From an uncultured Gammaproteobacteria bacterium (lineage in GTDB: Bacteria; Patescibacteriota; Microgenomatia; UBA10105; UBA927), in the NCBI GenBank assembly GCA_964527425.1, contig CAZGOA010000003.1, forward strand, positions 29,941 through 93,940: a DNA stretch of 64,000 nt, read 5' to 3'. Made by a program: the position numbers and the translations under genes. This document shows, piece by piece, positions 4,347-49,368 of this stretch (positions within the stretch are counted from its first letter, which is position 1; every line of letters begins with the position of its first letter). The notes beneath the pieces are model-generated. The model saw only the letters and a list, made by a program, of their open reading frames with translations. It searched no databases and was not told the origin of the DNA.

Positions 4347-4391
4347 CTTCCGATCCGGGATCGGTAGCCTCATCCGATCCGGGGTCGGAAG
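4347..4391. repeat. palindromic interspersed repeat, module-2 type (CTTCCGATCCGGGATCGG-TAGCCTC-ATCCGATCCGGGGTCGGAAG)
   Basis: Self-complementary CCGATCCGGGATCGG core, shared with at least 8 other loci in the window. Confidence 0.8.
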
Positions 4392-4458
4392 AAACTAGCC
4401 TATAATATTTGTGTTATTCCTTATTTTTCGTTATACTATCTATCCCTATACACTATCT

Positions 4459-5505
4459 ATGAATGAACAAAAGTCATTTAAACCGGATAATTTAGAATTT
4501 CAGATGTATCTATCTCGATTCAGTAATGATCATCCAGGTGTACTGGAAACATTTTGGCGTGATCCTCTGTTTTTAGATCATGTAACTTCATTACATATTA
4601 ATCCTGAAGCTCTTTCAAAACTCCAGAGACATGAAGTTGCCGCGACATTGATTGCACCACCTAGAATGAGGGCGGCATTTATGCATGGACCTATGCGGGC
4701 AATCCTTAGTCGGGTTGATTATGAAGGATATAGTAAATACTTAACTGACTATGCTCAGAGTACAATTTCAGGACAACAGTCATTCACCCAATCAAGATTC
4801 AATAGTGATTCTTTGAAATTTGCTTTTCAAACGCTAAATCGATTAGTTGACCCCTTGGTGAATAGCTATGGACAGCCAGTCTCAGACCTTCTTAACAACG
4901 ATCCATATCTGAATGCCAGATTTCGACTCTATACAAACCTACAATACCCAGAGGATGTACTGCGGGATAGTTTTCAAACATCTTATACTACCTATCAAAC
5001 AATACTTGAACGCTGTATTACTCATGCAAACGGCAGTCATGAATTTTCTTATCTCCATGCATCTAGTAATAGGGTCCGAGAACTGGCACACATACGACTA
5101 TTAAAAATGACTGATATAGCTCAAATTGCCAAAGGTCTCACCAGAACCAGTAACGGATTTGTAACCCCAGAACTTGTTACTCAAAGACAGCTATATAAGT
5201 GTATAGAGCTAAAAGACGATCATTTCGGACTAACTCATTCAACGGTTCAGGAGCTTAACACTCACTTGCGAAACCATAACCGCAGTATGGGTGATCCTGA
5301 AGAAAACGAAGGGTATATTCCTGAACTAGGCACATCATCGGGTTGTCCATTTGGACATGAAGGAAGTCAGCAACCGAGATATTCAGATAATCCGCTCGAG
5401 GTACAATACCTTCCTGCTCATTTGCGTCAGGACATTGTTGAACCTATAGATATCATACATCAGTGGATTTGCTTACTGGCAGAAGCTTATAACCAACATA
5501 TATGA
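4459..5505 (+). CDS. hypothetical protein, paralog A of a tandem pair (C-terminal TSSGCPFGH motif)
   Basis: Long ORF with no recognisable family. Its stop overlaps the start of the next gene (ATGA). It shares the motif ...TSSGCPFGHEGSQQPRYSD with the downstream paralog. Start set at MNEQKSF; the track ORF begins at 4411. Confidence 0.5.
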   Translation: MNEQKSFKPDNLEFQMYLSRFSNDHPGVLETFWRDPLFLDHVTSLHINPEALSKLQRHEVAATLIAPPRMRAAFMHGPMRAILSRVDYEGYSKYLTDYAQSTISGQQSFTQSRFNSDSLKFAFQTLNRLVDPLVNSYGQPVSDLLNNDPYLNARFRLYTNLQYPEDVLRDSFQTSYTTYQTILERCITHANGSHEFSYLHASSNRVRELAHIRLLKMTDIAQIAKGLTRTSNGFVTPELVTQRQLYKCIELKDDHFGLTHSTVQELNTHLRNHNRSMGDPEENEGYIPELGTSSGCPFGHEGSQQPRYSDNPLEVQYLPAHLRQDIVEPIDIIHQWICLLAEAYNQHI

Positions 5506-6704
5506 GAGAAGTACTAACAAATAATCCAAATACTGACTATATCTCATTATTGATACAAGACGCAAAAGACCGTCCAGACGATTATCCCTGCAATGGAGTA
5601 CAAGATTATACTCACGATCTTCGAACGATAGCGGCGTCTATGCTGGCAGATACAAGACTTGGTATTGAAATTGTTCCATACGGAAACACCATTAGAGTCA
5701 CAGTGCAACATAACTTAGTCGGTGAGATTGAGGATATTCCTGATATCAACACTGTTGATGCACTTATGACTATATTAAAGACCCATTATGCACCGGATCA
5801 TCTAAGAGGAGATTTTCATAAAACTGTAACTAATCGTTTACTCAGACAGACTCATTTACCACAGATTACTCGTACTGATATTACCAGTTTGGAGAGTGAA
5901 GAACATGCTATTGAAATGGACTATCTTCCAGACTACTTAACTCAACCTCATCGCTTACTCAATGCACTGTTTGTTCGAGTTGAGCAAACAGAAAATATAC
6001 CTGAAATTTGGAATCGTATTATCAGCCCAGACATTCTCAAAAAAGAGCCGGTTATCGCATTCAGACTTTATCAGTATGCGTATTATAATTCGTTCGATAC
6101 AATTATTTCAGACGGTGTGATTGGACAGGTTAAAATTACTCGGGCACTGTTATTTAGCATTATTGAACGCCTCGATCGAACCAATCCCATATATTCACCA
6201 GATATTCCTACAGCGCTTCACGCTGCGCAGTATATTCTGCGAAGTAAAAATTTTATGCACATGATGTTTGAATTAACACAGATACCAAATGGACATCTGA
6301 TTCCAGGCATCCAACATCCGCTATTACCGGACAATAGATGGCAATACTTTACCTCTAGTCTCCGTATATCTGATGGGGATATTGCGTTTACCGATCAGTA
6401 CCGTGAAGAATTGGATCGGAATATAAAAACACATAATAATCGTTCAGGTACTCTTCCTGACACTTTACGCAATAAGCCATATACAGTGTTAGAAGCTGCA
6501 ACTACGTCAGGTTGCCCACTCGGTCACGGAGCACCCAGTAAACAAACGTTTTCTGATGACAGAAATAACATCGCTTTTTTCCCAGATAAAGCACTAACAT
6601 CTGTAAACAAACACCCGATTATTAGCCTTAATGATACGTTAATTGACCTGATTGACATGGTAATCACTGATAAAGAACTTCAACAATCATTATTAGCATC
6701 ATAG
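5502..6704 (+). CDS. hypothetical protein, paralog B of a tandem pair (C-terminal TTSGCPLGH motif)
   Basis: 400 aa ORF translationally coupled to the upstream gene. Conserved block EAATTSGCPLGHGAPSKQTFSD. Confidence 0.5.
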   Translation: MREVLTNNPNTDYISLLIQDAKDRPDDYPCNGVQDYTHDLRTIAASMLADTRLGIEIVPYGNTIRVTVQHNLVGEIEDIPDINTVDALMTILKTHYAPDHLRGDFHKTVTNRLLRQTHLPQITRTDITSLESEEHAIEMDYLPDYLTQPHRLLNALFVRVEQTENIPEIWNRIISPDILKKEPVIAFRLYQYAYYNSFDTIISDGVIGQVKITRALLFSIIERLDRTNPIYSPDIPTALHAAQYILRSKNFMHMMFELTQIPNGHLIPGIQHPLLPDNRWQYFTSSLRISDGDIAFTDQYREELDRNIKTHNNRSGTLPDTLRNKPYTVLEAATTSGCPLGHGAPSKQTFSDDRNNIAFFPDKALTSVNKHPIISLNDTLIDLIDMVITDKELQQSLLAS

Positions 6705-9097: not shown

Positions 9098-9296
9098 TCG
9101 ATCCCGGATGCAGACATTCATCCGATCCCGGATCGAGGTAAGATCTCCTTAAAGTTAGTTCATCTCGATCCGGGATGCAGACATTCGTCCGATCCCGGAT
9201 CGGAGTAAGATCTCCATAAAGTTAATTCATCTCGATCCGGGATGCAGACATTCGTCCGATCCCGGATCGGTAGCCTCTTCCGATCCCGGATCGGAA
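9098..9296. repeat. tandem array: 3 x ~65 bp units (39 nt hairpin module plus 26 nt near-identical linker) ending in the TAGCCTC plus module-2 palindrome
   Basis: TTCGATCCCGGATGCAGACATTCATCCGATCCCGGATCGAGGTAAGATCTCCTTAAAGTTAGTTCA, followed by TCTCGATCCGGGATGCAGACATTCGTCCGATCCCGGATCGGAGTAAGATCTCCATAAAGTTAATTCA, followed by a third copy, then TAGCCTCTTCCGATCCCGGATCGGAA. Confidence 0.85.
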
Positions 9297-9322: not shown

Positions 9323-10639
9323 ATGCCTGCCTATACCAGTAAACTTGTTGATCCTGGCGTGTGTATTGTATTTGCCTATGCTCCTGCTGGATTGGGTCAC
9401 TTACGAGTGACTGATGCGCTGTATCATGGTCTACCTCAGGAATGCGATCCAATGCTTTTGCCTGATACTGCTGTGTCTGTTAAGACTCTCCATAGGTTGA
9501 CAAGTAGTAATCCTTTTGCAAAGCGTTTTTTTGAATGGTCTCAGCAAGGAGTACCAGAAACGATTATTACGAGAATATATCGTTTCATGCTTCATCAGGA
9601 TGCCCGTTTCATGCAGAAACGATTATTAGAGTTATTAAAACAACGAATTCAATTACCTCATACATTGGTTATTGTAGCCACTCATTATGGTATTGCTCAC
9701 CAGGTATCTGTAATAAAAAAAGATCTAGAACGTTTAGGAAATGTTCGAGTGTTGCTCGTTGTTCAAGTAACAGATGATAGTCCTCAGAAACTCTGGTACG
9801 TACCACATGCCGATTTACTCTGTGTGCCAAGTGAATTTACATATACATCACTACAGACATATGGTAGATTGGAACATTTAGGCAAAAGTCGAATTGTTAT
9901 TCTTCCATATCCTGTGAGTCCACGCCTATTACAACCACGTTCTCAGCAAGATATGGACTTAGCGATGCATCAAACTGATCCGTTAAGTCAGGTGCTTATT
10001 CATACGGTAATCCCAATATCAGGTGCTGCAGTCGGAATACCATATTTGAGAAAATTGATGCATAAACTTCATACATTAGAACCCAGAATGCGATTTCATA
10101 TTATTGTAAAACGCTCAATATTTACCCTATCTGCAATCCGATCCTGGAAACGAAAAGGATATATGTATGTATATGAATCTCGTTCTGATAGAGAGATTAT
10201 TGATCTATATGAACGTGTATATGAGCAGGAAAAAATTGTATTGGAGATAACTAAACCATCTGAACAGTCATTTAAAGCACTTATTCCGCCCAACAGGCAA
10301 GGGGGGAGTATTTTACTTTTTGCACCTCCTGTTGGAAGACAGGAGTATGATAATGTAAGTTTTTTACAGCGTAATGGGTTAATCCCGTCTGGTGAGGAAT
10401 ATAGACAATTGTGCGACGTCTTGAATTTAGAACAAAATAGACCTATTCCATTACCCATATCCCATTGGCGCGGGTTTAGACTTTCTGATGATCCAGTCAT
10501 TGCAGCTAAATGGATAAGTCGTGCATTAACATTTAGGATTTTTCAGTCTATGATTTCTGGGAAAGAACATAAACGCTCAGATGAAGTGAGTCCTGAGGGT
10601 GTTGAGGAATTCTGGAAGCAAGTGGTGTCGTTGTTATAA
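9323..10639 (+). CDS. GT-B glycosyltransferase, MGDG-synthase/UgtP-like (GT28-related)
   Basis: N-terminal APAGLGHLRVTDAL resembles the GGGH..AA.AL motif of MGDG/diglucosyl-DAG synthases. LWYVPHADLLCVPSE resembles the GT28 C-terminal region. Confidence 0.45.
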   Translation: MPAYTSKLVDPGVCIVFAYAPAGLGHLRVTDALYHGLPQECDPMLLPDTAVSVKTLHRLTSSNPFAKRFFEWSQQGVPETIITRIYRFMLHQDARFMQKRLLELLKQRIQLPHTLVIVATHYGIAHQVSVIKKDLERLGNVRVLLVVQVTDDSPQKLWYVPHADLLCVPSEFTYTSLQTYGRLEHLGKSRIVILPYPVSPRLLQPRSQQDMDLAMHQTDPLSQVLIHTVIPISGAAVGIPYLRKLMHKLHTLEPRMRFHIIVKRSIFTLSAIRSWKRKGYMYVYESRSDREIIDLYERVYEQEKIVLEITKPSEQSFKALIPPNRQGGSILLFAPPVGRQEYDNVSFLQRNGLIPSGEEYRQLCDVLNLEQNRPIPLPISHWRGFRLSDDPVIAAKWISRALTFRIFQSMISGKEHKRSDEVSPEGVEEFWKQVVSLL

Positions 10640-13741: not shown

Positions 13742-14461
13742 TTAACTATTGGTGTAGACTCGCTGAACATCATCCAACTCTTGTAATAAATCAACAATCG
13801 TCTCTATCTTTGTTTGCGTAGATTCGGTAATTTGAATTGGGATTGTTGGGATAAACATTATCTCAGATGAGTCTACTGGAATTGTTCTTGCTTGAAGTTG
13901 ATGCAGAATTGTTTCGAATTGCTCTACCTCACTGATAACCTCAACTTCATTGTCGTAAAACGAAACGTCGCTAGCACCTATTTCGATAAGATAATCTAAT
14001 AGCTCATCATCTGTAAGAGATAGCGGTCTTTTAATGAGAATGATTCCAACTTTTTTAAATTGAAAGGCAACTGAACCTGGTGTCGCAAGACTACCTTCAT
14101 GATGATCAAATATATTTTTTATCTGTGACACAGTACGAGTTTTGTTCTCTGTGGCTGCTTCTATGAGAAATGCCACCCCTTGGGGCCCATACGCCTCATA
14201 CACTAACGATTCCATTTGGTCTTGCCCTCCCCCTTTCCCTTTTGCGATGGCGCGATCAATATTGTCTTTAGGCATGTTTACTTCTTTTGCTTTTTCGATA
14301 GCGAGTCGCAGTTTAAAGTTACTTTGTGGATCAGTTATGCCACCCCCTTCTTTCACTGCAATAGTAATACCCCGACTTGCTCGGGTAAAGGCTTTTGCTT
14401 TAACCACATCAGTTACTGCTTTTTGATGTTTTACTTTTGACCATTTTGAATGACCTGCCAT
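13742..14461 (-). CDS. YebC/PmpR family DNA-binding transcriptional regulator
   Basis: MAGHSKWSKVKHQKAVTDVVKAKAFTRASRGITIAVKEGGG...RAIAKGKGG is the YebC signature. The start is moved to the MAGHSKW Met. Confidence 0.85.
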   Translation of the reverse strand: MAGHSKWSKVKHQKAVTDVVKAKAFTRASRGITIAVKEGGGITDPQSNFKLRLAIEKAKEVNMPKDNIDRAIAKGKGGGQDQMESLVYEAYGPQGVAFLIEAATENKTRTVSQIKNIFDHHEGSLATPGSVAFQFKKVGIILIKRPLSLTDDELLDYLIEIGASDVSFYDNEVEVISEVEQFETILHQLQARTIPVDSSEIMFIPTIPIQITESTQTKIETIVDLLQELDDVQRVYTNS

Positions 14462-14567
14462 ATAATAAAATATATACTGTACAACCAATTCAGTTTTGTC
14501 TTGTTAATACTTGGTATTTTACTCGCTATATTGACTTTTCACAATAAAATCCATACACTCGATTCTC

Positions 14568-20880: not shown

Positions 20881-20923
20881 TTCGATCCGGGATGCAGACA
20901 TCCGTTGAGATCCCGGATCGGAA
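20881..20923. repeat. solo hairpin module of the palindromic repeat family (TTCGATCCGGGATGCAGACATCCGTTGAGATCCCGGATCGG)
   Basis: Sequence identity to the repeat consensus. Lies immediately upstream of the MFS gene. Confidence 0.8.
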
Positions 20924-21574: not shown

Positions 21575-21652
21575 TTCGATCCGGGATGCAGAAATACTTC
21601 CGATCCCGGATCGGGTGAGGCTACCGAAATTCTTCCGATCCGGGATCGGAAT
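21575..21652. repeat. composite repeat: hairpin module plus linker plus module-2 palindrome
   Basis: TTCGATCCGGGATGCAGAAATACTTCCGATCCCGGATCGG-GTGAGGCTACCGAAATT-CTTCCGATCCGGGATCGGAA. Overlaps the last ~11 codons of the minus-strand ORF 21621..22325. Confidence 0.8.
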
Positions 21653-23935: not shown

Positions 23936-24331
23936 TTAGCTGTGCGAAAGTTTATCCTGAAAATCAGAATCATATTTGCTATAATCCATTGTCAGTTCTT
24001 CACCCACATTGATATCTCTTGCTGCTACGTCTATTCCCTCGTCATCTTCTGGAACCGACTGATCAATACATGTAGGCTGATCTGAGTGATTTTGAAATCG
24101 TGTGTCATCAAAACACAAGATATACATTCCAGTTTTTTTATTGCGATAGCAGTACTTTAAACATTGTTCTTTTGCAGGGTCAGAGAGCTTTTGAAGTTGT
24201 TCTTCTGAAAATTTTAAATCAAATCCCGGTTGAAATTTCCATACTGGAGTTCCCTTTGGAATAAACTGGTCAGCAAATAATCCTATGCCGTGAATTTTAC
24301 TTGGACCAATAGAAGTTTTTACTAAAATCAT
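23936..24331 (-). CDS. SET-domain protein (putative lysine methyltransferase)
   Basis: 131 aa with GIGLFA...G..V...FQNHSDQPTC... SET-like blocks. Starts 16 nt downstream of tRNA-Leu. Confidence 0.6.
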   Translation of the reverse strand: MILVKTSIGPSKIHGIGLFADQFIPKGTPVWKFQPGFDLKFSEEQLQKLSDPAKEQCLKYCYRNKKTGMYILCFDDTRFQNHSDQPTCIDQSVPEDDEGIDVAARDINVGEELTMDYSKYDSDFQDKLSHS

Positions 24332-24482: not shown

Positions 24483-24518
24483 ATCGGGATGGAGACATCC
24501 GTTCCGATCCCGGATCGG
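24483..24518. repeat. degenerate solo hairpin module (ATCGGGATGGAGACATCCGTTCCGATCCCGGATCGG)
   Basis: Matches the repeat consensus. Lies between tRNA-Leu and dnaB. Confidence 0.7.
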
Positions 24519-29193: not shown

Positions 29194-30153
29194 CTATTTC
29201 GCAAATAACTGATTATAGTCAGTTGATGTTTTAAATTCTTCAAACCATGCACTGTCTCCGAGTGATCTGAGGATATCAAGTGATTCTTCAGTTAATGGAA
29301 GCGTAATATCTTCTAAAACTTGCCTAATGTGTTCGTGTTGTTGAGGTGTTGGATAAACCATATATGCTGCCCGTACTGAATAAAAATTTCCGGTATACCA
29401 CTCAACTGGATTCTTACCAGAAGATCGGATTTTTTCCTGTAAGGTAAATGCGATTATTTCGCTCATGCCTCGATAGAAGGCAATTTTTAAATATTCTTCA
29501 TGGTATTCTTCTGGAAGATGATCAAGTATTATTTGCGTCATTTCTCGTTTTCTTTCTACTGCAAGATTATATGCTGATTTGGGATCTTTAAACCTTGGCG
29601 AACTAAACAATTTATCATGCATTATACTCATTACTTTTTCCCGATCAGAGCTGGTATTAATCGAATCTTGAGCACTATAAATTAGGCTGTTATGTGCTTC
29701 AATGTTAAGATTCCATACTGTTTGTAGTGTTAATCCATGCGTTGCTTCATGAACAGAATTTGCAAGTAGTATTTTTAAATAATCAGGCATTTCTTGTTTT
29801 GTACTTTTTATGTCTTCTGCAATATCTGAAAAACCTACCACCCATTCACTTCTATCATCTTTTGTTACTACCATTTCAGGCTCTTGGTCTGCCTTTCTTG
29901 AATTATTATTTACTCGCACGCGAAGTATTATGCTTCTTGTAGAATGATCGAATGCTCCACCTTCCTGTGTAGAAGGATCGTTTAAGATATGTTCATTACT
30001 GTCAAGTTGAATGATAGTTAGTCTTTCAAAAGACTGTGGTACCAATTGCAGTGTTGACTGGAATAAAAATTCTTCCAGTCGAGATAGAATTGGCTCTTTT
30101 GGAGGCTTTATAGGTTCTGCAGAAACACCTACTTCGTAATTTTTATTGCCCAT
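29194..30153 (-). CDS. hypothetical protein with HExxH motif (possible metallopeptidase-like)
   Basis: SVHEATHGL is an HExxH match. Nothing else recognised. Confidence 0.35.
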   Translation of the reverse strand: MGNKNYEVGVSAEPIKPPKEPILSRLEEFLFQSTLQLVPQSFERLTIIQLDSNEHILNDPSTQEGGAFDHSTRSIILRVRVNNNSRKADQEPEMVVTKDDRSEWVVGFSDIAEDIKSTKQEMPDYLKILLANSVHEATHGLTLQTVWNLNIEAHNSLIYSAQDSINTSSDREKVMSIMHDKLFSSPRFKDPKSAYNLAVERKREMTQIILDHLPEEYHEEYLKIAFYRGMSEIIAFTLQEKIRSSGKNPVEWYTGNFYSVRAAYMVYPTPQQHEHIRQVLEDITLPLTEESLDILRSLGDSAWFEEFKTSTDYNQLFAK

Positions 30154-30811: not shown

Positions 30812-31693
30812 ATGACAAAAGAAATTTATTTATCATATACATCTCTAAAAAAAATAGCTTCAAACAGATTCGCATTTGAGAGTGTGCTGCAAGCATCTCC
30901 TCACAGACGATTCTATTTTGTGAATAATCAGTGGAGCGTCAATACTCCAGAAAAACGTCCAGAAAAAACACGTATCGAAATGAATCTGGAACAATTTCGT
31001 AAGGCTCGTTCTGCATATACCATGTGGTGCAAACTGCAACCGTCGTTCACCTTTAACCCAGTATTTCCAGAGACAGTCATTGAACGATTCATGACAAACG
31101 AACTACTTACAATTTTTATCCCTTGGGGGGTAAGTGATAAAGATTATATTGCTGAACGTGAAACTCAGGCGCTCAATATAATTCAACAGGTCAATACTTA
31201 TTTCAACGAGAATGGTATAGGTACAAGAGTTTTGCTCATGCCTGCAGATATCTATGCGTTGGAAATTAATAATAAAGTACCGCCCACTATTGTGAATAAT
31301 TATTTTAATCTATTGACTTTAGAAGCGGAAAAACGCGATTTGCTTGTAAGACCATGGTCAACAATTAGAAAGAATAATCAAAGCAGGTACATTCATCTGG
31401 CAAACGAATTTTCCAATTTACGAATAGACGAAGTTATTTCTCAACCTGTGCGCAATAAAGCAGAACTCGCGGCATCTAAAAACAGTGGATTTACCAATCC
31501 TGAAGAGATACGACAAAGCGCATATAATTATCTGCGGGAGCGCATTTGTGAGGCAATAATCATTGAAGAAACACTTAAACCCATTAAAATTTCACTGGCA
31601 CCGAAACATAAGGATAATGATGTTGATATGAATTTACCGCGATTGTACATCTTTCCTGAACATCTCATACTGCCATGGAAAGGAAAGGTATGA
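30812..31693 (+). CDS. hypothetical protein
   Basis: 293 aa ORF with no recognised domain. Its 3' end overlaps the next gene by 19 nt. Confidence 0.45.
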   Translation: MTKEIYLSYTSLKKIASNRFAFESVLQASPHRRFYFVNNQWSVNTPEKRPEKTRIEMNLEQFRKARSAYTMWCKLQPSFTFNPVFPETVIERFMTNELLTIFIPWGVSDKDYIAERETQALNIIQQVNTYFNENGIGTRVLLMPADIYALEINNKVPPTIVNNYFNLLTLEAEKRDLLVRPWSTIRKNNQSRYIHLANEFSNLRIDEVISQPVRNKAELAASKNSGFTNPEEIRQSAYNYLRERICEAIIIEETLKPIKISLAPKHKDNDVDMNLPRLYIFPEHLILPWKGKV

Positions 31694-34527: not shown

Positions 34528-34974
34528 GTGGAGTTACATTTCATGGGAACCTATCTTTTCCCTTCATCAAACATGTATATCGCCAATTCTTTAATAAAGG
34601 GTGCAGGAAGAGGTGTGTTTGCCTCAAGACATATTGAAAAAGATGAAATGATTGAACGATGTCCAGTCATTATCCTGCAACAGCATGATATTCAGGTAAT
34701 AGAAAAGACAGAACTTATTAATTATTACTTTCAATGGGAGTCGAAAGCAAACTATTCTAAGGGTGCCATCTGTTTGGGTTTTGGATCAATCTATAATCAC
34801 TCATATGCTCCCAATGCGACATATAAAAAAATACTAAAAGAACGCTGTATTGAGTTTGTGGCCATATCACATATTCGAAAAGATGAAGAGATAACGGTGA
34901 ATTATAATAACGGAAATCCGGACGATAAGCGTGTTTTATGGATTAAATCTATCCCTCCACCTGCAGGATACTGA
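34528..34974 (+). CDS. SET-domain protein (second copy)
   Basis: GAGRGVFASRHIEKDEMI...NHSYAPNATY are SET signature blocks. The true start may be an internal ATG. Confidence 0.55.
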   Translation: MELHFMGTYLFPSSNMYIANSLIKGAGRGVFASRHIEKDEMIERCPVIILQQHDIQVIEKTELINYYFQWESKANYSKGAICLGFGSIYNHSYAPNATYKKILKERCIEFVAISHIRKDEEITVNYNNGNPDDKRVLWIKSIPPPAGY

Positions 34975-36666: not shown

Positions 36667-36738
36667 TGTATTTATCTATCTTATTTACATAGACAAATGA
36701 ACAAATTTGTAAAATATATGTCAACAAACTACACTACC

Positions 36739-36747
36739 TGTTATAAT
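36739..36747 (+). promoter_or_regulatory. extended -10 TGTTATAAT, with a second TGGTATACT at ~36776-36784, upstream of rpmE
   Basis: Two TGnTATAnT elements. The second ends 8 nt before the ATG and there is no SD, which suggests a leaderless transcript. Confidence 0.3.
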
Positions 36748-36792: not shown

Positions 36793-37104
36793 ATGAAGCA
36801 AGGAATACACCCCCAATGGTATGATGAGGCAACGGTTTCGTGTGCTTGTGGCAACACGTTTACTGTTGGTGCTTCTAAACCTTCTATCAATATAGATATT
36901 TGTTCAAAATGTCATCCTTTCTTTACAGGGGAAATGAGATTTGTAGATACGATGGGTCGAGTTGAGAAATTCCAACAAAAACAACAATTTGCGAAGACTC
37001 AAAAACAAGTCCTGGATGACAAGAAAAAGAAGAAAGAAGAAAAAATACAAGCACAAAAGAATGCTCCAAAGTCTCTTCGTGAAATGTTAATGGGAATGAA
37101 GTAA
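36793..37104 (+). CDS. rpmE: 50S ribosomal protein L31 with Lys-rich C-terminal extension
   Basis: [23 protein letters not shown]...[10 protein letters not shown] is the L31 core; a KKKKKEEK-rich tail follows. Confidence 0.85.
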
Positions 37105-37155
37105 CAGAAATTTGTTGTACAACGTGTCAAACTACACTAACTAAACAAAATTCCT

Positions 37156-37848
37156 ATGAATACAAATGTTGCAATATTAGAGTTCCGAGCCGGCCCAGGT
37201 GGCGAGGAAGCAAAAATTTGGGCTAGTGATTTGCTTCGAATGTATACCCGATATGCCAATATCGTTGGCTGGAAAGTGAGTAGTGTGTCTGAAACTGCAA
37301 TTCGTATTAAGGGTGAAGATGTGTTTACAAAACTTCAATATGAAGCAGGTACACATAGAGTTCAACGCATTCCTACTACTGAACGACAGGGTCGTATTCA
37401 TACGTCTACTGCAACTGTTGCAGTACTCCCAGAAATATTGGAATCAGAAGTTGCTGTTCGAAATGAAGACCTTGAATGGGACTTTCATCGAGCGGGCGGC
37501 CACGGTGGACAAAATGTAAATAAGGTAAGCTCTGCTGTACGTTTAACGCATAAACCCAGTGGAATTGTTGTAACTTGTAGTAATGAGAGAGATCAATTTC
37601 AAAATAGACAAGTTGCCTTATCTATGCTTCGTGCCAAACTGTGGGAAGCTGAGGAAATCAAAAAAGCGGCAACGATGGCTGATGCCAGGTCTGTTATAGG
37701 TCGAGGTATGCGAGCTGAGAAAATACGTACCTATAACTACCCTCAAAACCGGGTAACTGATCACAGAATTAACAAATCATGGCATAATCTGGAAGATATT
37801 GTTGAAGGAAAGCTGCAAAAAGTCACTGAGGCTATGGTGGGTATCTGA
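37156..37848 (+). CDS. prfA: class-I peptide chain release factor, RF1-type, lacking N-terminal domain 1
   Basis: GGQ motif ([12 protein letters not shown]) and PxT-type codon-recognition motif ([14 protein letters not shown]). Only 230 aa, and it starts at the position equivalent to about residue 110 of RF1. Confidence 0.7.
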
Positions 37849-37871
37849 AGCTGTAGTGTTTAAACTCATAG

Positions 37872-37891
37872 TTCGATCCCGGGATCGGAAG
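37872..37891. repeat. module-2 palindrome (TTCGATCCCGGGATCGGAAG)
   Basis: Perfect palindrome between the convergent prfA-like and htrA genes. Confidence 0.75.
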
Positions 37892-37904
37892 AAGAGTTTA
37901 TTGT

Positions 37905-39086
37905 TTATTCTCCCTGATTTCCTAAGGTTATTTGGATGTCTTGTTCACTGCCATCTCTCCAGATACGTACTGTCACTTGATCCCCTACTTTTTTCTTTCC
38001 TATTACTTGCGCAAGTTCGGCGTTTTCACCACTTAATCTGACTCCATCAATCGTCATAATGATATCGTCTTCCTTAAGTCCTGCCTGATCTGCAGGACCG
38101 TTTTCTACGATTTCTATGATATATGCGCCTTCTGGGACGTCATTTAATAAAGCAACATCTTTTGATACGGTTCTGTATCTGACTCCTAAATATGGTCTAT
38201 TAAATTGTCCTGTTTGATTAAAGTTATCAACTGCTTCTTTAACGACATTAATGGGTATAGCAAATCCGATATTTTGACCTTGCGATGAAACTGCCGTATT
38301 CACACCAACGACTTGTCCTGCAGAATTAAGGAGCGGCCCTCCAGAGTTACCCGGATTTATGGCGGCATCTGTTTGAATGACATTATCCAGTCGTTCTACT
38401 GATCCCTCAAAGGGACTTCCTGCTGTGATTCCCCTTCCGACCCCTGAGATAACACCTGTTGTAACGGTTTGTCTGAATTCTCCTAAAGCAGTTCCGATCG
38501 CAATAGCTAACTGCCCTACTTTAATGTTGTCTGAATCTCCTAATTCTATAGGAGTTAAGCCTGTAGCATCTATTTTAACGATCGCTAAATCATTCACTGT
38601 ATCGCGGTATACTCTCTGAACGTCATACGATTTATCATCTGAGGTAATAATGCGATACTTCGAATCGGGATCATCAACAACATGACGATTGGTAACGATT
38701 AGGCCATCTGAAGAAAGGATAAACCCACTACCAATATCTTGTTCTATCTCTCGACTCTCTCCAGGAATACGTCTAAACCCACCAAAAGGGTCAAATGGGT
38801 TAATTTCAAACAAATTGCGTTGTCTTTGAGTTCTCGTGATCCCCACTGTCACTACAGACGGCTTTACTTTTTCTACTGCATCAATAATGACTGATTCTTC
38901 ATTCATGACACGGGTGTTTCCATCAACTATTTGTAGAGGGGGTGTTAGTGAATTGGATAGTTTGGGCAACGATATATTTGGTAGTTTGAAGTCTGACCAG
39001 GATAAACCAAAGGCTCCTGAACTTATAACGCCTCCAACAATAAGGAAAAAAAGTAGTATGCCAAGTAGTGTTTTTTGTGACTTCAT
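37905..39086 (-). CDS. htrA: HtrA/DegP-family serine protease with PDZ domain
   Basis: Catalytic GNSGGPLLN, a trypsin-like His/Asp context and a C-terminal PDZ. Start set at MKSQKTLLG, which has a signal anchor and an AGGAGA SD. Confidence 0.8.
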   Translation of the reverse strand: MKSQKTLLGILLFFLIVGGVISSGAFGLSWSDFKLPNISLPKLSNSLTPPLQIVDGNTRVMNEESVIIDAVEKVKPSVVTVGITRTQRQRNLFEINPFDPFGGFRRIPGESREIEQDIGSGFILSSDGLIVTNRHVVDDPDSKYRIITSDDKSYDVQRVYRDTVNDLAIVKIDATGLTPIELGDSDNIKVGQLAIAIGTALGEFRQTVTTGVISGVGRGITAGSPFEGSVERLDNVIQTDAAINPGNSGGPLLNSAGQVVGVNTAVSSQGQNIGFAIPINVVKEAVDNFNQTGQFNRPYLGVRYRTVSKDVALLNDVPEGAYIIEIVENGPADQAGLKEDDIIMTIDGVRLSGENAELAQVIGKKKVGDQVTVRIWRDGSEQDIQITLGNQGE

Positions 39087-39232
39087 ATATCTCCTTTCGA
39101 CAGTTAGTCTTGAAGATTCTGTATCAGAATTATGTATCTCGTTTCTTATTTTTACAAGGGTTATCTGAAAATTTGCTGAAATGTATTGTATTGTAAGTTT
39201 ATTAAAGCACGGTGTGTAAATCAACCTGATCT

Positions 39233-39428
39233 CTCGATGCAGAAATACTTCAGACCCTGGATCGGTTTAGGCTTCATCTCGATCCGGGATGCAGACATTC
39301 GTCCGATCCCGGATCGGTATAGGCTTCTCGGTGTTTGAATGCATAATTCGATCCCGGATGCAGACGTCCGTCCGATCCGGGATCGGTATAGGCTGTATAG
39401 GCTCGACTCTTCCGATCCGGGATCGGTA
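39233..39428. repeat. array of 3 hairpin modules (one degenerate) with GTATAGGCT-type linkers, ending in a module-2 palindrome
   Basis: CTCGATGCAGAAATACTTCAGACCCTGGATCGG...TCTCGATCCGGGATGCAGACATTCGTCCGATCCCGGATCGG...TTCGATCCCGGATGCAGACGTCCGTCCGATCCGGGATCGG...CTTCCGATCCGGGATCGGTAG. Confidence 0.85.
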
Positions 39429-49101: not shown

Positions 49102-49347
49102 GGATCTGTGCAGACAGTTTATCTTGATTAACCCGGTTTTTTTGTGTATTACGATCCGGGATGCAGACATTCGTCCGATCCCGGATCGGTGGAAGGATTA
49201 TCTGATAAACCAAGGAATTTGGCTAAAAGTGTGACGGTAAAGTGAAGATGTATAGGTACGGTTTATCTTGATTGTTCCGGTTTTTGATTATCACGATCCG
49301 GGATGCAGACATTCGTTGAGATTCAGGATCGGTAGCCTCAGCCTCTT
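49060..49347 (+). repeat. 2 x 144 bp tandem direct duplication of the glmS 3' end plus downstream hairpin module
   Basis: GATAAACCAAGGAATTTGGCTAA(G/A)AGTGTGACGGTAAAGTGA...TTTATCTTGATT...CGATCCGGGATGCAGACATTCG occurs twice, at 49060 and 49204. The second copy retains an out-of-context ...DKPRNLAKSVTVK stop remnant. Confidence 0.7.
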
Positions 49348-49368
49348 TCTTCCGATCCCGGATCGGAA
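49295..49368. repeat. hairpin module (degenerate right arm) plus TAGCCTC linker plus module-2 palindrome
   Basis: CGATCCGGGATGCAGACATTCGTTGAGATTCAGGATCGG-TAGCCTCAGCCTCTTT-CTTCCGATCCCGGATCGGAA. Confidence 0.8.

Follow-up and report, generated by a model that had tools for sequence, protein, structure and literature searches.

A probable housekeeping release factor 1 lacking domain 1 in Microgenomates bacteria

Architecture and family assignment of a short RF1

The window examined here is the 64,000-nucleotide stretch of contig CAZGOA010000003.1 that spans positions 29,941 to 93,940. It carries prfA, a gene for peptide chain release factor 1 (RF1), in a slot between rpmE (ribosomal protein L31) and a convergent gene for an HtrA/DegP-type serine protease (Table 1). 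The prfA open reading frame (ORF) encodes 230 residues from an ATG start to a TGA stop codon at 37846-37848, and its predicted product comprises only domains 2, 3 and 4 of RF1. We consider the gene likely to be the housekeeping prfA orthologue of a Gottesmanbacteria-like bacterium of the Microgenomates, part of the candidate phyla radiation (CPR), and that its product works without domain 1.

Table 1. Features of the prfA locus in window coordinates
Feature	Position	Strand	Basis or remark
Promoter-like site ATGTCA-18-TATAAT, preceded by TG	36718..36747	+	consensus scan, 10/12 matches
rpmE, L31, 103 residues, Lys-rich C-terminal extension	36793..37104	+	Pfam PF01197
rpmE-prfA spacer, 51 nucleotides	37105..37155	+	in-frame TAA; too short for domain 1
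prfA lacking domain 1 (domains 2, 3 and 4 only)	37156..37848	+	ORF, Pfam, NCBIfam, homologues
G13-P-G-G-E-E-A19, tip of first domain-2 helix	37192..37212	+	G13, G15, G16, E18 and A19 invariant
PxT tripeptide P73-T74-T75	37372..37380	+	within the HRVQR-P-x-T-E...RIHTS stretch; P73 and T75 invariant
PTTE, P73-T74-T75-E76	37372-37383	+	read directly from the sequence
RF-1 (GGQ) domain, residues 97-204	37444..37767	+	PF00472, 127 bits
GGQ, G117-G118-Q119	37504-37512	+	invariant; GGQ-N-V-N-K invariant
prfA-htrA spacer, 56 nucleotides, convergent genes	37849..37904	.	palindrome CGATCCCGGGATCG at 37874-37887
HtrA/DegP-type serine protease, convergent to prfA	37905..39224	-	Pfam Trypsin_2 and PDZ

The Pfam RF-1 profile is covered whole (positions 3-116 of 116), and the PCRF profile is matched only by residues 4-88, corresponding to its positions 100-194 of 194. 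PCRF positions 1-99 represent domain 1, a defining part of RF1 that the window protein lacks. The two NCBIfam prfA models are likewise covered from positions 105 to 339 of 347 and 113 to 346 of 361, and alignment with RF1 chains in the PDB places the protein opposite Thermotoga maritima residues 87-319 and Escherichia coli residues 111-344 (numbering follows the sequence used in PDB 5j30 over all 360 residues). In a MAFFT alignment M1 lies opposite E. coli D106, the second and fifth residues (Asn and Val) opposite E108 and N110, and A6 opposite A111, where the conserved strand of the window protein begins. These alignments agree with a preliminary description of the locus, which put the start of this 230-residue protein near residue 110 of canonical RF1. 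Domain 2 also departs from the canonical form in that 10 loop residues, corresponding to E. coli 152-161, are missing. Several cryogenic electron microscopy models of ribosome-bound E. coli RF1 start at residues 97-110, and so correspond to the span of the natural short protein.

The same description held that there is no room upstream for a missing domain 1, and this stands. An in-frame TAA (37138-37140) is separated from the prfA ATG by only five codons, CTA AAC AAA ATT CCT, none of which is ATG, GTG or TTG, and the whole gap to the end of rpmE is 51 nucleotides.

Both motifs on which the initial RF1-type assignment was based, PTTE and GGQ, could be located (Table 1). In solved RF1 complexes the GxGG[DE]EA element at the tip of the first domain-2 helix is the reader of the stop-codon U1. 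The protein consists of the decoding superdomain 2/4 together with the GGQ domain 3, with the elements for reading UAA and UAG and for hydrolysis all conserved, and from this we infer UAA/UAG-dependent peptidyl-tRNA hydrolysis. The secondary structure of an AlphaFold model fits release factor domains 2 and 3 and part of domain 4. A Foldseek search with this model returned RF1 and RF2 chains, the best template-modelling scores (0.62-0.63) being to the compact RF1 forms 1rq0 and 6orl; a solved PrfH chain appeared at rank 50 with 27% identity.

Scoring against the RF1, RF2, PrfH and ArfB profiles, as the preliminary description had proposed, favours RF1. The two RF1 models score best, NF001859 with 322.7 bits (cutoff 400) and TIGR00019 with 317.7 bits (cutoff 423.25), and both scores fall under the equivalog cutoffs because domain 1 is absent. 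The RF2 model TIGR00020 gives 211.6 bits. PrfH (TIGR03072) reaches 71.3 bits against a cutoff of 166.65 and matches only residues 96-195, the GGQ domain, and ArfB (NF006718), for which the cutoff is 100, reaches 53 bits with a match confined to residues 96-132. The top PDB matches are all RF1. The tripeptide is PTT instead of the SPF of RF2, and the ORF is unbroken, without a frameshift.

Compared with canonical RF1 (prfA; TIGR00019/NF001859), the window protein shares 50-58% identity over domains 2, 3 and 4, the PxT, GGQ, RIHTS and switch-loop regions, and the rpmE neighbour; it differs in lacking E. coli residues 1-105 (domain 1 and the N-terminal part of the LLPKDPDDERN linker) and the 10 domain-2 loop residues, in its sub-cutoff scores and in having no prmC after prfA. 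With PrfH (RFH), the partner of RtcB2 in ribosome repair, it has in common the loss of domain 1 and the retention of a domain-2-like module and GGQ. However, absence of domain 1 is insufficient for membership of that family, and PrfH has an altered decoding region and sits downstream of rtcB, whereas the window protein keeps PxT and follows rpmE. The suggestion that the gene might be PrfH-like was therefore dropped, given also the low PrfH score and a slot shared with full-length RF1s. The GGQ-only rescue factors ArfB, ICT1 and C12orf65 share the GGQ domain; they have a basic C-terminal tail and no decoding superdomain, whereas domains 2/4 of the window protein are complete. Sequence comparison thus points to a protein that descends from RF1 and would work like RF1, although it lacks domain 1 and scores below the curated cutoffs.

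Conservation and repeated loss of domain 1

We searched a collection of 5.8 billion protein sequences and, separately, a collection of species-representative genomes. The best 120 protein matches are all 230-253 residues long, with 76-100% identity to the window protein, and those with a named source come from Gottesmanbacteria and Patescibacteria metagenome-assembled genomes (MAGs). Relatives are named 'PCRF domain-containing protein', 'peptide chain release factor-like protein' or 'peptide chain release factor 1' in the databases; the first name results from annotation pipelines meeting scores under the curated RF1 thresholds. Marker sets that use TIGR00019, such as the bac120 list, may count prfA as missing in these lineages.

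In the species-representative genomes 232 stretches encode a relative, and the locus counts given here are based on 80 of these plus the window (81 in all). RF1 at 74 of the 81 loci has just 8-10 residues ahead of the E-[FI]-R strand, with an in-frame stop codon shortly upstream. The truncation is therefore common to orthologues, the check that the preliminary description had asked for, and a sequencing frameshift as its cause is excluded. Among 75 short sequences with 60-90% identity, little or no variation is seen in GxGG[DE]EA, HRVQR-P-x-T-E and RIHTS, which read the stop codon in solved RF1 complexes, in the catalytic loop GGQNVNK or in the C-terminal segment RTYN.PQ.RVTDHR. P73, T75, E76 and R80-I-H-T-S84 do not vary, and the middle residue of PxT does (T, V, K, E, S or L). 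Judged by this invariance, in alignments of 38 to 75 sequences, the decoding and catalytic motifs of the short RF1 are under functional constraint. Two database entries look like assembly or sequencing artefacts: a short RF1 copy that runs out of frame after residue 127 (P0196), and a 477-residue RF1 in which about 120 residues are duplicated internally (P0122).

Longer RF1s occupy the same slot after rpmE at 6 of the 81 loci. Two of them (L074 and L077) have 113 residues ahead of the strand, an extension that covers the whole of E. coli domain 1 in alignment; the other four (L067, L071, L079 and L076, an Amesbacteria MAG) have about 75, matching only E. coli residues from about 45 to 105, that is, the end of helix α2 and helix α3. 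A further Amesbacteria protein (P0124; GenBank KKU58406.1) retains a 20-residue N-terminal stub. Together with the window type these proteins form a nested series of N-terminal deletions, with 113, about 75, 20 and 0 residues. The presence of sister Microgenomates RF1s with 113, about 75 and 20 residues in this slot identifies the window gene as the orthologous prfA. The domain-2 deletion is common to all these forms and is thus older than the loss of domain 1.

A tree built by neighbour joining, the only method used, from 207 columns with 60 bootstraps unites Microgenomates RF1s of every length in one clade (60 of 60) and, in as many bootstraps, pairs the Amesbacteria protein that has the 20-residue stub with the Amesbacteria form that has 75 residues. 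Support for the Microgenomates short forms as a monophyletic group is weak (33 of 60). An initial neighbour-joining tree with a single outgroup had nested the full-length forms within the short ones, an arrangement rejected because the broader bootstrapped tree places them at the base. A search for full-length RF1 in Gottesmanbacteria, made in the 5.8-billion-sequence database with a Microgenomates domain-1 profile that is too weak for the purpose, gave no match at E ≤ 0.001. Among representatives of clusters at 50% identity, those closest to the window protein include further short forms (P0127, 232 residues; P0167, 242; P0130, 269) as well as many low-G+C, CPR-like RF1s that have 42-85 N-terminal residues.

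Short RF1s also occur outside the Microgenomates. The best 120 matches in a search with P0127 are all RF1s of 230-255 residues, and those with names come from Zambryskibacteria, Liptonbacteria, Colwellbacteria, Paceibacterota and Minisyncoccia. The Paceibacteria/Parcubacteria short RF1s (for example P0377, P0388 and P0341) begin MTTNKIILEIRAG, at the same boundary as the window protein, with which they share their domains and 49% identity. They differ in that most keep the domain-2 loop and in their genomic context, with rpmE and a prfB-ftsEX group about 2-5 kb away. They also represent a separate lineage: in the tree they form their own clade (51 of 60 bootstraps) and are joined with the Microgenomates short forms in 0 of 60. 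Given this separation, domain 1 was lost in full at least twice at one and the same structural boundary, with an additional shortening.

Four Paceibacteria/Minisyncoccia loci (L087-L090) allow comparison of the short RF1 with its paralogue. Their RF1 genes encode 244-248 residues and begin 30 nucleotides after the neighbouring gene; about 2-5 kb away are rpmE and, next to it, a second PCRF/RF-1 gene with ftsE-ftsX behind it. This second gene, the sole other release factor nearby, is prfB, encoding RF2. In L087 (6799-8000, minus strand), and also in L088 and L090, it has a +1 frameshift site, CTT TGA C, after a G-rich stretch, and an SPF motif. Joined across the shift, the L087 RF2 is 349 residues long and aligns with residues 6-361 of the 366 of Bacillus subtilis RF2, including the whole of domain 1. 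Gene callers split these prfB genes or start them late, calling 311-325 residues against the 349 reconstituted. Since the neighbouring RF2 keeps its whole domain 1, the loss of domain 1 is specific to RF1 in these genomes. By extension from the Paceibacteria, RF2 of the window organism probably retains domain 1 too.

Proposed mode of termination by the short RF1 and competing explanations

The window has a G+C content of 37.8% and uses the standard code, and its 64 long ORFs end with TAA (39), TGA (13) or TAG (12). As TAG also ends 93 of 618 long ORFs in the loci of the clade, a UAG decoder is needed. The prfA orthologues themselves stop at TAA (66 of 81), TGA (11 of 81) or TAG (2 of 81). All 11 that end in TGA stop 26-33 residues past TDHR, just where the 66 TAA-ended ones do, showing that UGA is a genuine stop and hence that an RF2 activity must exist. 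Because the window prfA ends in TGA, synthesis of its RF1 would be terminated by RF2. We also considered UGA as a sense codon and rejected it on the same two grounds, the share of long ORFs that it ends and the common end point of the orthologues.

In canonical RF1, domain 1 touches the L11 N-terminal domain through its helices α2 and α3, and domain 3 of RF3 through α2 (PMC3677378). According to the account of Mora, Zavialov, Ehrenberg and Buckingham (2003) given in PMC1586002, an engineered E. coli RF1 without domain 1 is still codon-specific and active in peptide release in vitro, works in vivo, and loses the stimulation of nucleotide exchange on RF3. That construct, as described there, also consists of domains 2-4 only; it is a laboratory product in a host with RF3, whereas the window form is natural and fixed across large clades. 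The full-text literature, a coverage that leaves out most subscription journals, yielded no description of a housekeeping RF1 without domain 1 in the CPR, and the accessible part of the release factor survey by Burroughs and Aravind (2019) has nothing on a truncated CPR RF1.

We propose that RF1 without domain 1 would bind the A site at UAA and UAG, where the PxT loop, the helix tip and the RIHTS histidine would read the codon. Domain 3 would then swing the GGQ loop into the peptidyl-transferase centre, and the peptide would be released without the usual contact of domain 1 to the L11 N-terminal domain or to RF3. The short RF1 may leave the ribosome spontaneously or upon the action of RRF and EF-G, not through RF3. 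UGA would be read by a separate RF2, probably with domain 1 as in Paceibacteria, and the loss of domain 1 from RF1 would have been stepwise and have occurred more than once within the CPR.

The complete genome of Southlakia epibionticum (Saccharibacteria) gives a view of the release factors in a CPR bacterium: RF1 (1068 nucleotides) and RF2 (1083 nucleotides) are both essential, and its gene table lists a non-essential PrmC, includes RRF and has no 'release factor 3' entry (PMC10633639). An RF3-less CPR background is a plausible correlate of domain-1 loss. Yet Southlakia RF1 is full length although the table lists no RF3, so absence of RF3 would be permissive at most, not sufficient. In Southlakia the order is prfA, prmC and then a convergent trypsin-like peptidase (SEML1_0188-0190; PMC10633639). 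In the window the counterpart of the prmC slot is the spacer at 37849-37904, set in the same frame of prfA and convergent htrA; with the slot reduced to 56 nucleotides, prmC is gone from that position, and a scan for the NPPY signature of PrmC revealed no such ORF near prfA in any locus. The earlier observation that no prmC follows prfA thus holds, the next gene being the convergent HtrA-type protease.

As for why RF1 in particular has lost domain 1 repeatedly in the CPR, one tentative idea, which we rate as possible rather than probable, is that termination at UAA and UAG dropped the route through the L11 stalk and RF3 while RF2 still depends on it. Such a change could go together with the disappearance of prmC from the operon of prfA and with an altered GTPase-associated centre of CPR ribosomes. 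If true, the two class-I factors of one cell would dock and recycle by different mechanisms.

The role of domain 1 has so far been argued from laboratory truncations, to which the short CPR RF1s are the natural counterpart. The apparent housekeeping RF1 of two very large bacterial groups has done without the domain, at the same boundary and at least twice, and the paralogous RF2 retains it, at least in Paceibacteria. These bacteria therefore offer a ready-made system in which to ask what domain 1 is for, why RF1 bears its loss better than RF2 does and how RF1 is recycled without RF3, and a natural test of the minimal requirements for ending protein synthesis. A translation-factor trait is also added to the list of CPR ribosomal oddities.

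Several points weigh against a housekeeping RF1 acting in the way proposed. The evidence that RF2 keeps domain 1 comes from a different CPR class from that of the window, and the argument about RF3 from the single genome of Southlakia, whose RF1 has 355 residues. The AlphaFold model, made from a shallow alignment, has a mean confidence (pLDDT) of 66 with domain 4 poorly predicted, and the prfA ATG is preceded by no evident Shine-Dalgarno-like sequence. The search for a second prfA covered the window, 6 kb on either side of prfA in the 80 loci and about 13 kb past the window ends.

This last point bears on the idea that the gene is an accessory paralogue, a PrfH-like rescue or repair factor in a genome with a canonical full-length RF1 elsewhere, which we regard as unlikely. 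The neighbourhood scans cover only part of the genome, but they detected no second class-I release factor in the 64-kb window or within 6 kb of prfA in 80 loci, and near the short RF1 of L087-L090 only RF2. Known factors without domain 1 (PrfH) or without domains 1, 2 and 4 (ArfB) are indeed accessory; against a kinship with them stand scores far below the PrfH and ArfB cutoffs, the retention and invariance of PxT and the other decoding residues, and a neighbour that is rpmE and not rtcB. The missed RF1 cutoffs and the NCBI label 'PCRF domain-containing protein' on relatives would fit an accessory factor; the slot and the clade shared with full-length and intermediate sister RF1s speak against one.

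An alternative that keeps the housekeeping role has domain 1 supplied in trans by a separate helical protein, split off or unrelated, that docks the short RF1 to the L11 stalk. Reduced genomes often contain split genes, and the RF2 with domain 1 in related CPR bacteria suggests that stalk contact still matters, but we hold this to be very unlikely: phmmer --max searches in which five domain-1 sequences were run against all ORFs of 30 residues or more in the window and the 80 loci, about 0.9 Mb of related sequence, found full-length RF1s and no separate domain-1 ORF, and no conserved co-directional small gene flanks prfA in the loci compared. The Lys-rich C-terminal extension of L31 was considered as a captured remnant of domain 1 and ruled out, as it is also present beside full-length RF1. 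That the short gene is an artefact of assembly, frameshifting or gene calling, or a decaying pseudogene, is scarcely credible. Single metagenome-derived sequences are often frameshifted, as in the case of P0196, but the same architecture recurs in hundreds of independent assemblies from different projects, with an in-frame stop upstream, a tight or overlapping junction with rpmE and functional motifs that are invariant at 60-90% overall identity. A housekeeping RF1 without domain 1 is the reading that we retain.

Neighbouring genes and other features of the window

At 80 of the 81 loci rpmE immediately precedes prfA in the same orientation, and several orthologous loci show an overlap of 1 or 4 nucleotides between the two. 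The convergent htrA gene follows prfA in 63 loci and marks a conserved end of the prfA unit. Over 60-80 loci the order hisS, EamA transporter, rpmE, prfA, convergent htrA, S41 protease, rpsR, ssb, rpsF is kept. Since a consensus scan found a good promoter-like site only upstream of rpmE and none within the rpmE-prfA spacer, rpmE and prfA probably form one operon, although such sites are no more numerous than in shuffled sequence and so constitute weak evidence. The Lys/Glu-rich extension of L31 measures about 35-40 residues, ends in ..PK[ST]L[KR]EM[LI].. and is found in all Microgenomates loci, whatever the length of RF1.

Beyond one end of the window lie gyrB, a pyrophosphatase gene and type IV pilus genes, and beyond the other a signal-peptidase-like gene (weak Peptidase_S26 match) and unnamed ORFs; no RF2, RF3 or PrmC was found in these flanks of about 13 kb.

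The GC-rich palindrome CGATCC[C/G]GGATCG occurs in 15 copies in the window, against 0.04 expected by chance, at 4351-4387, 9123-9293, 20908-20920, 21601-21648, 24505-24517, 37874-37887, 39304-39425 and 49176-49365. Checked against the ORF map, the copies are mostly intergenic and often clustered, some within 47-nucleotide direct repeats at 39227-39394, and a 14-nucleotide variant (37874-37887) lies shortly after the prfA stop codon. They look like a repetitive extragenic palindromic (REP)-like intergenic element or a family of terminator hairpins.

Elsewhere the window encodes two small SET-domain proteins (PF00856) at 34528-34974 (plus strand; E = 4e-17) and 23936-24331 (minus strand; E = 2e-13), and a YebC/TACO1-family protein (PF20772 and PF01709) at 13742-14488 (minus strand). 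Large ORFs without any Pfam match lie at 4411-5505, 5502-6704, 9323-10639, 29194-30153 and 30812-31693.

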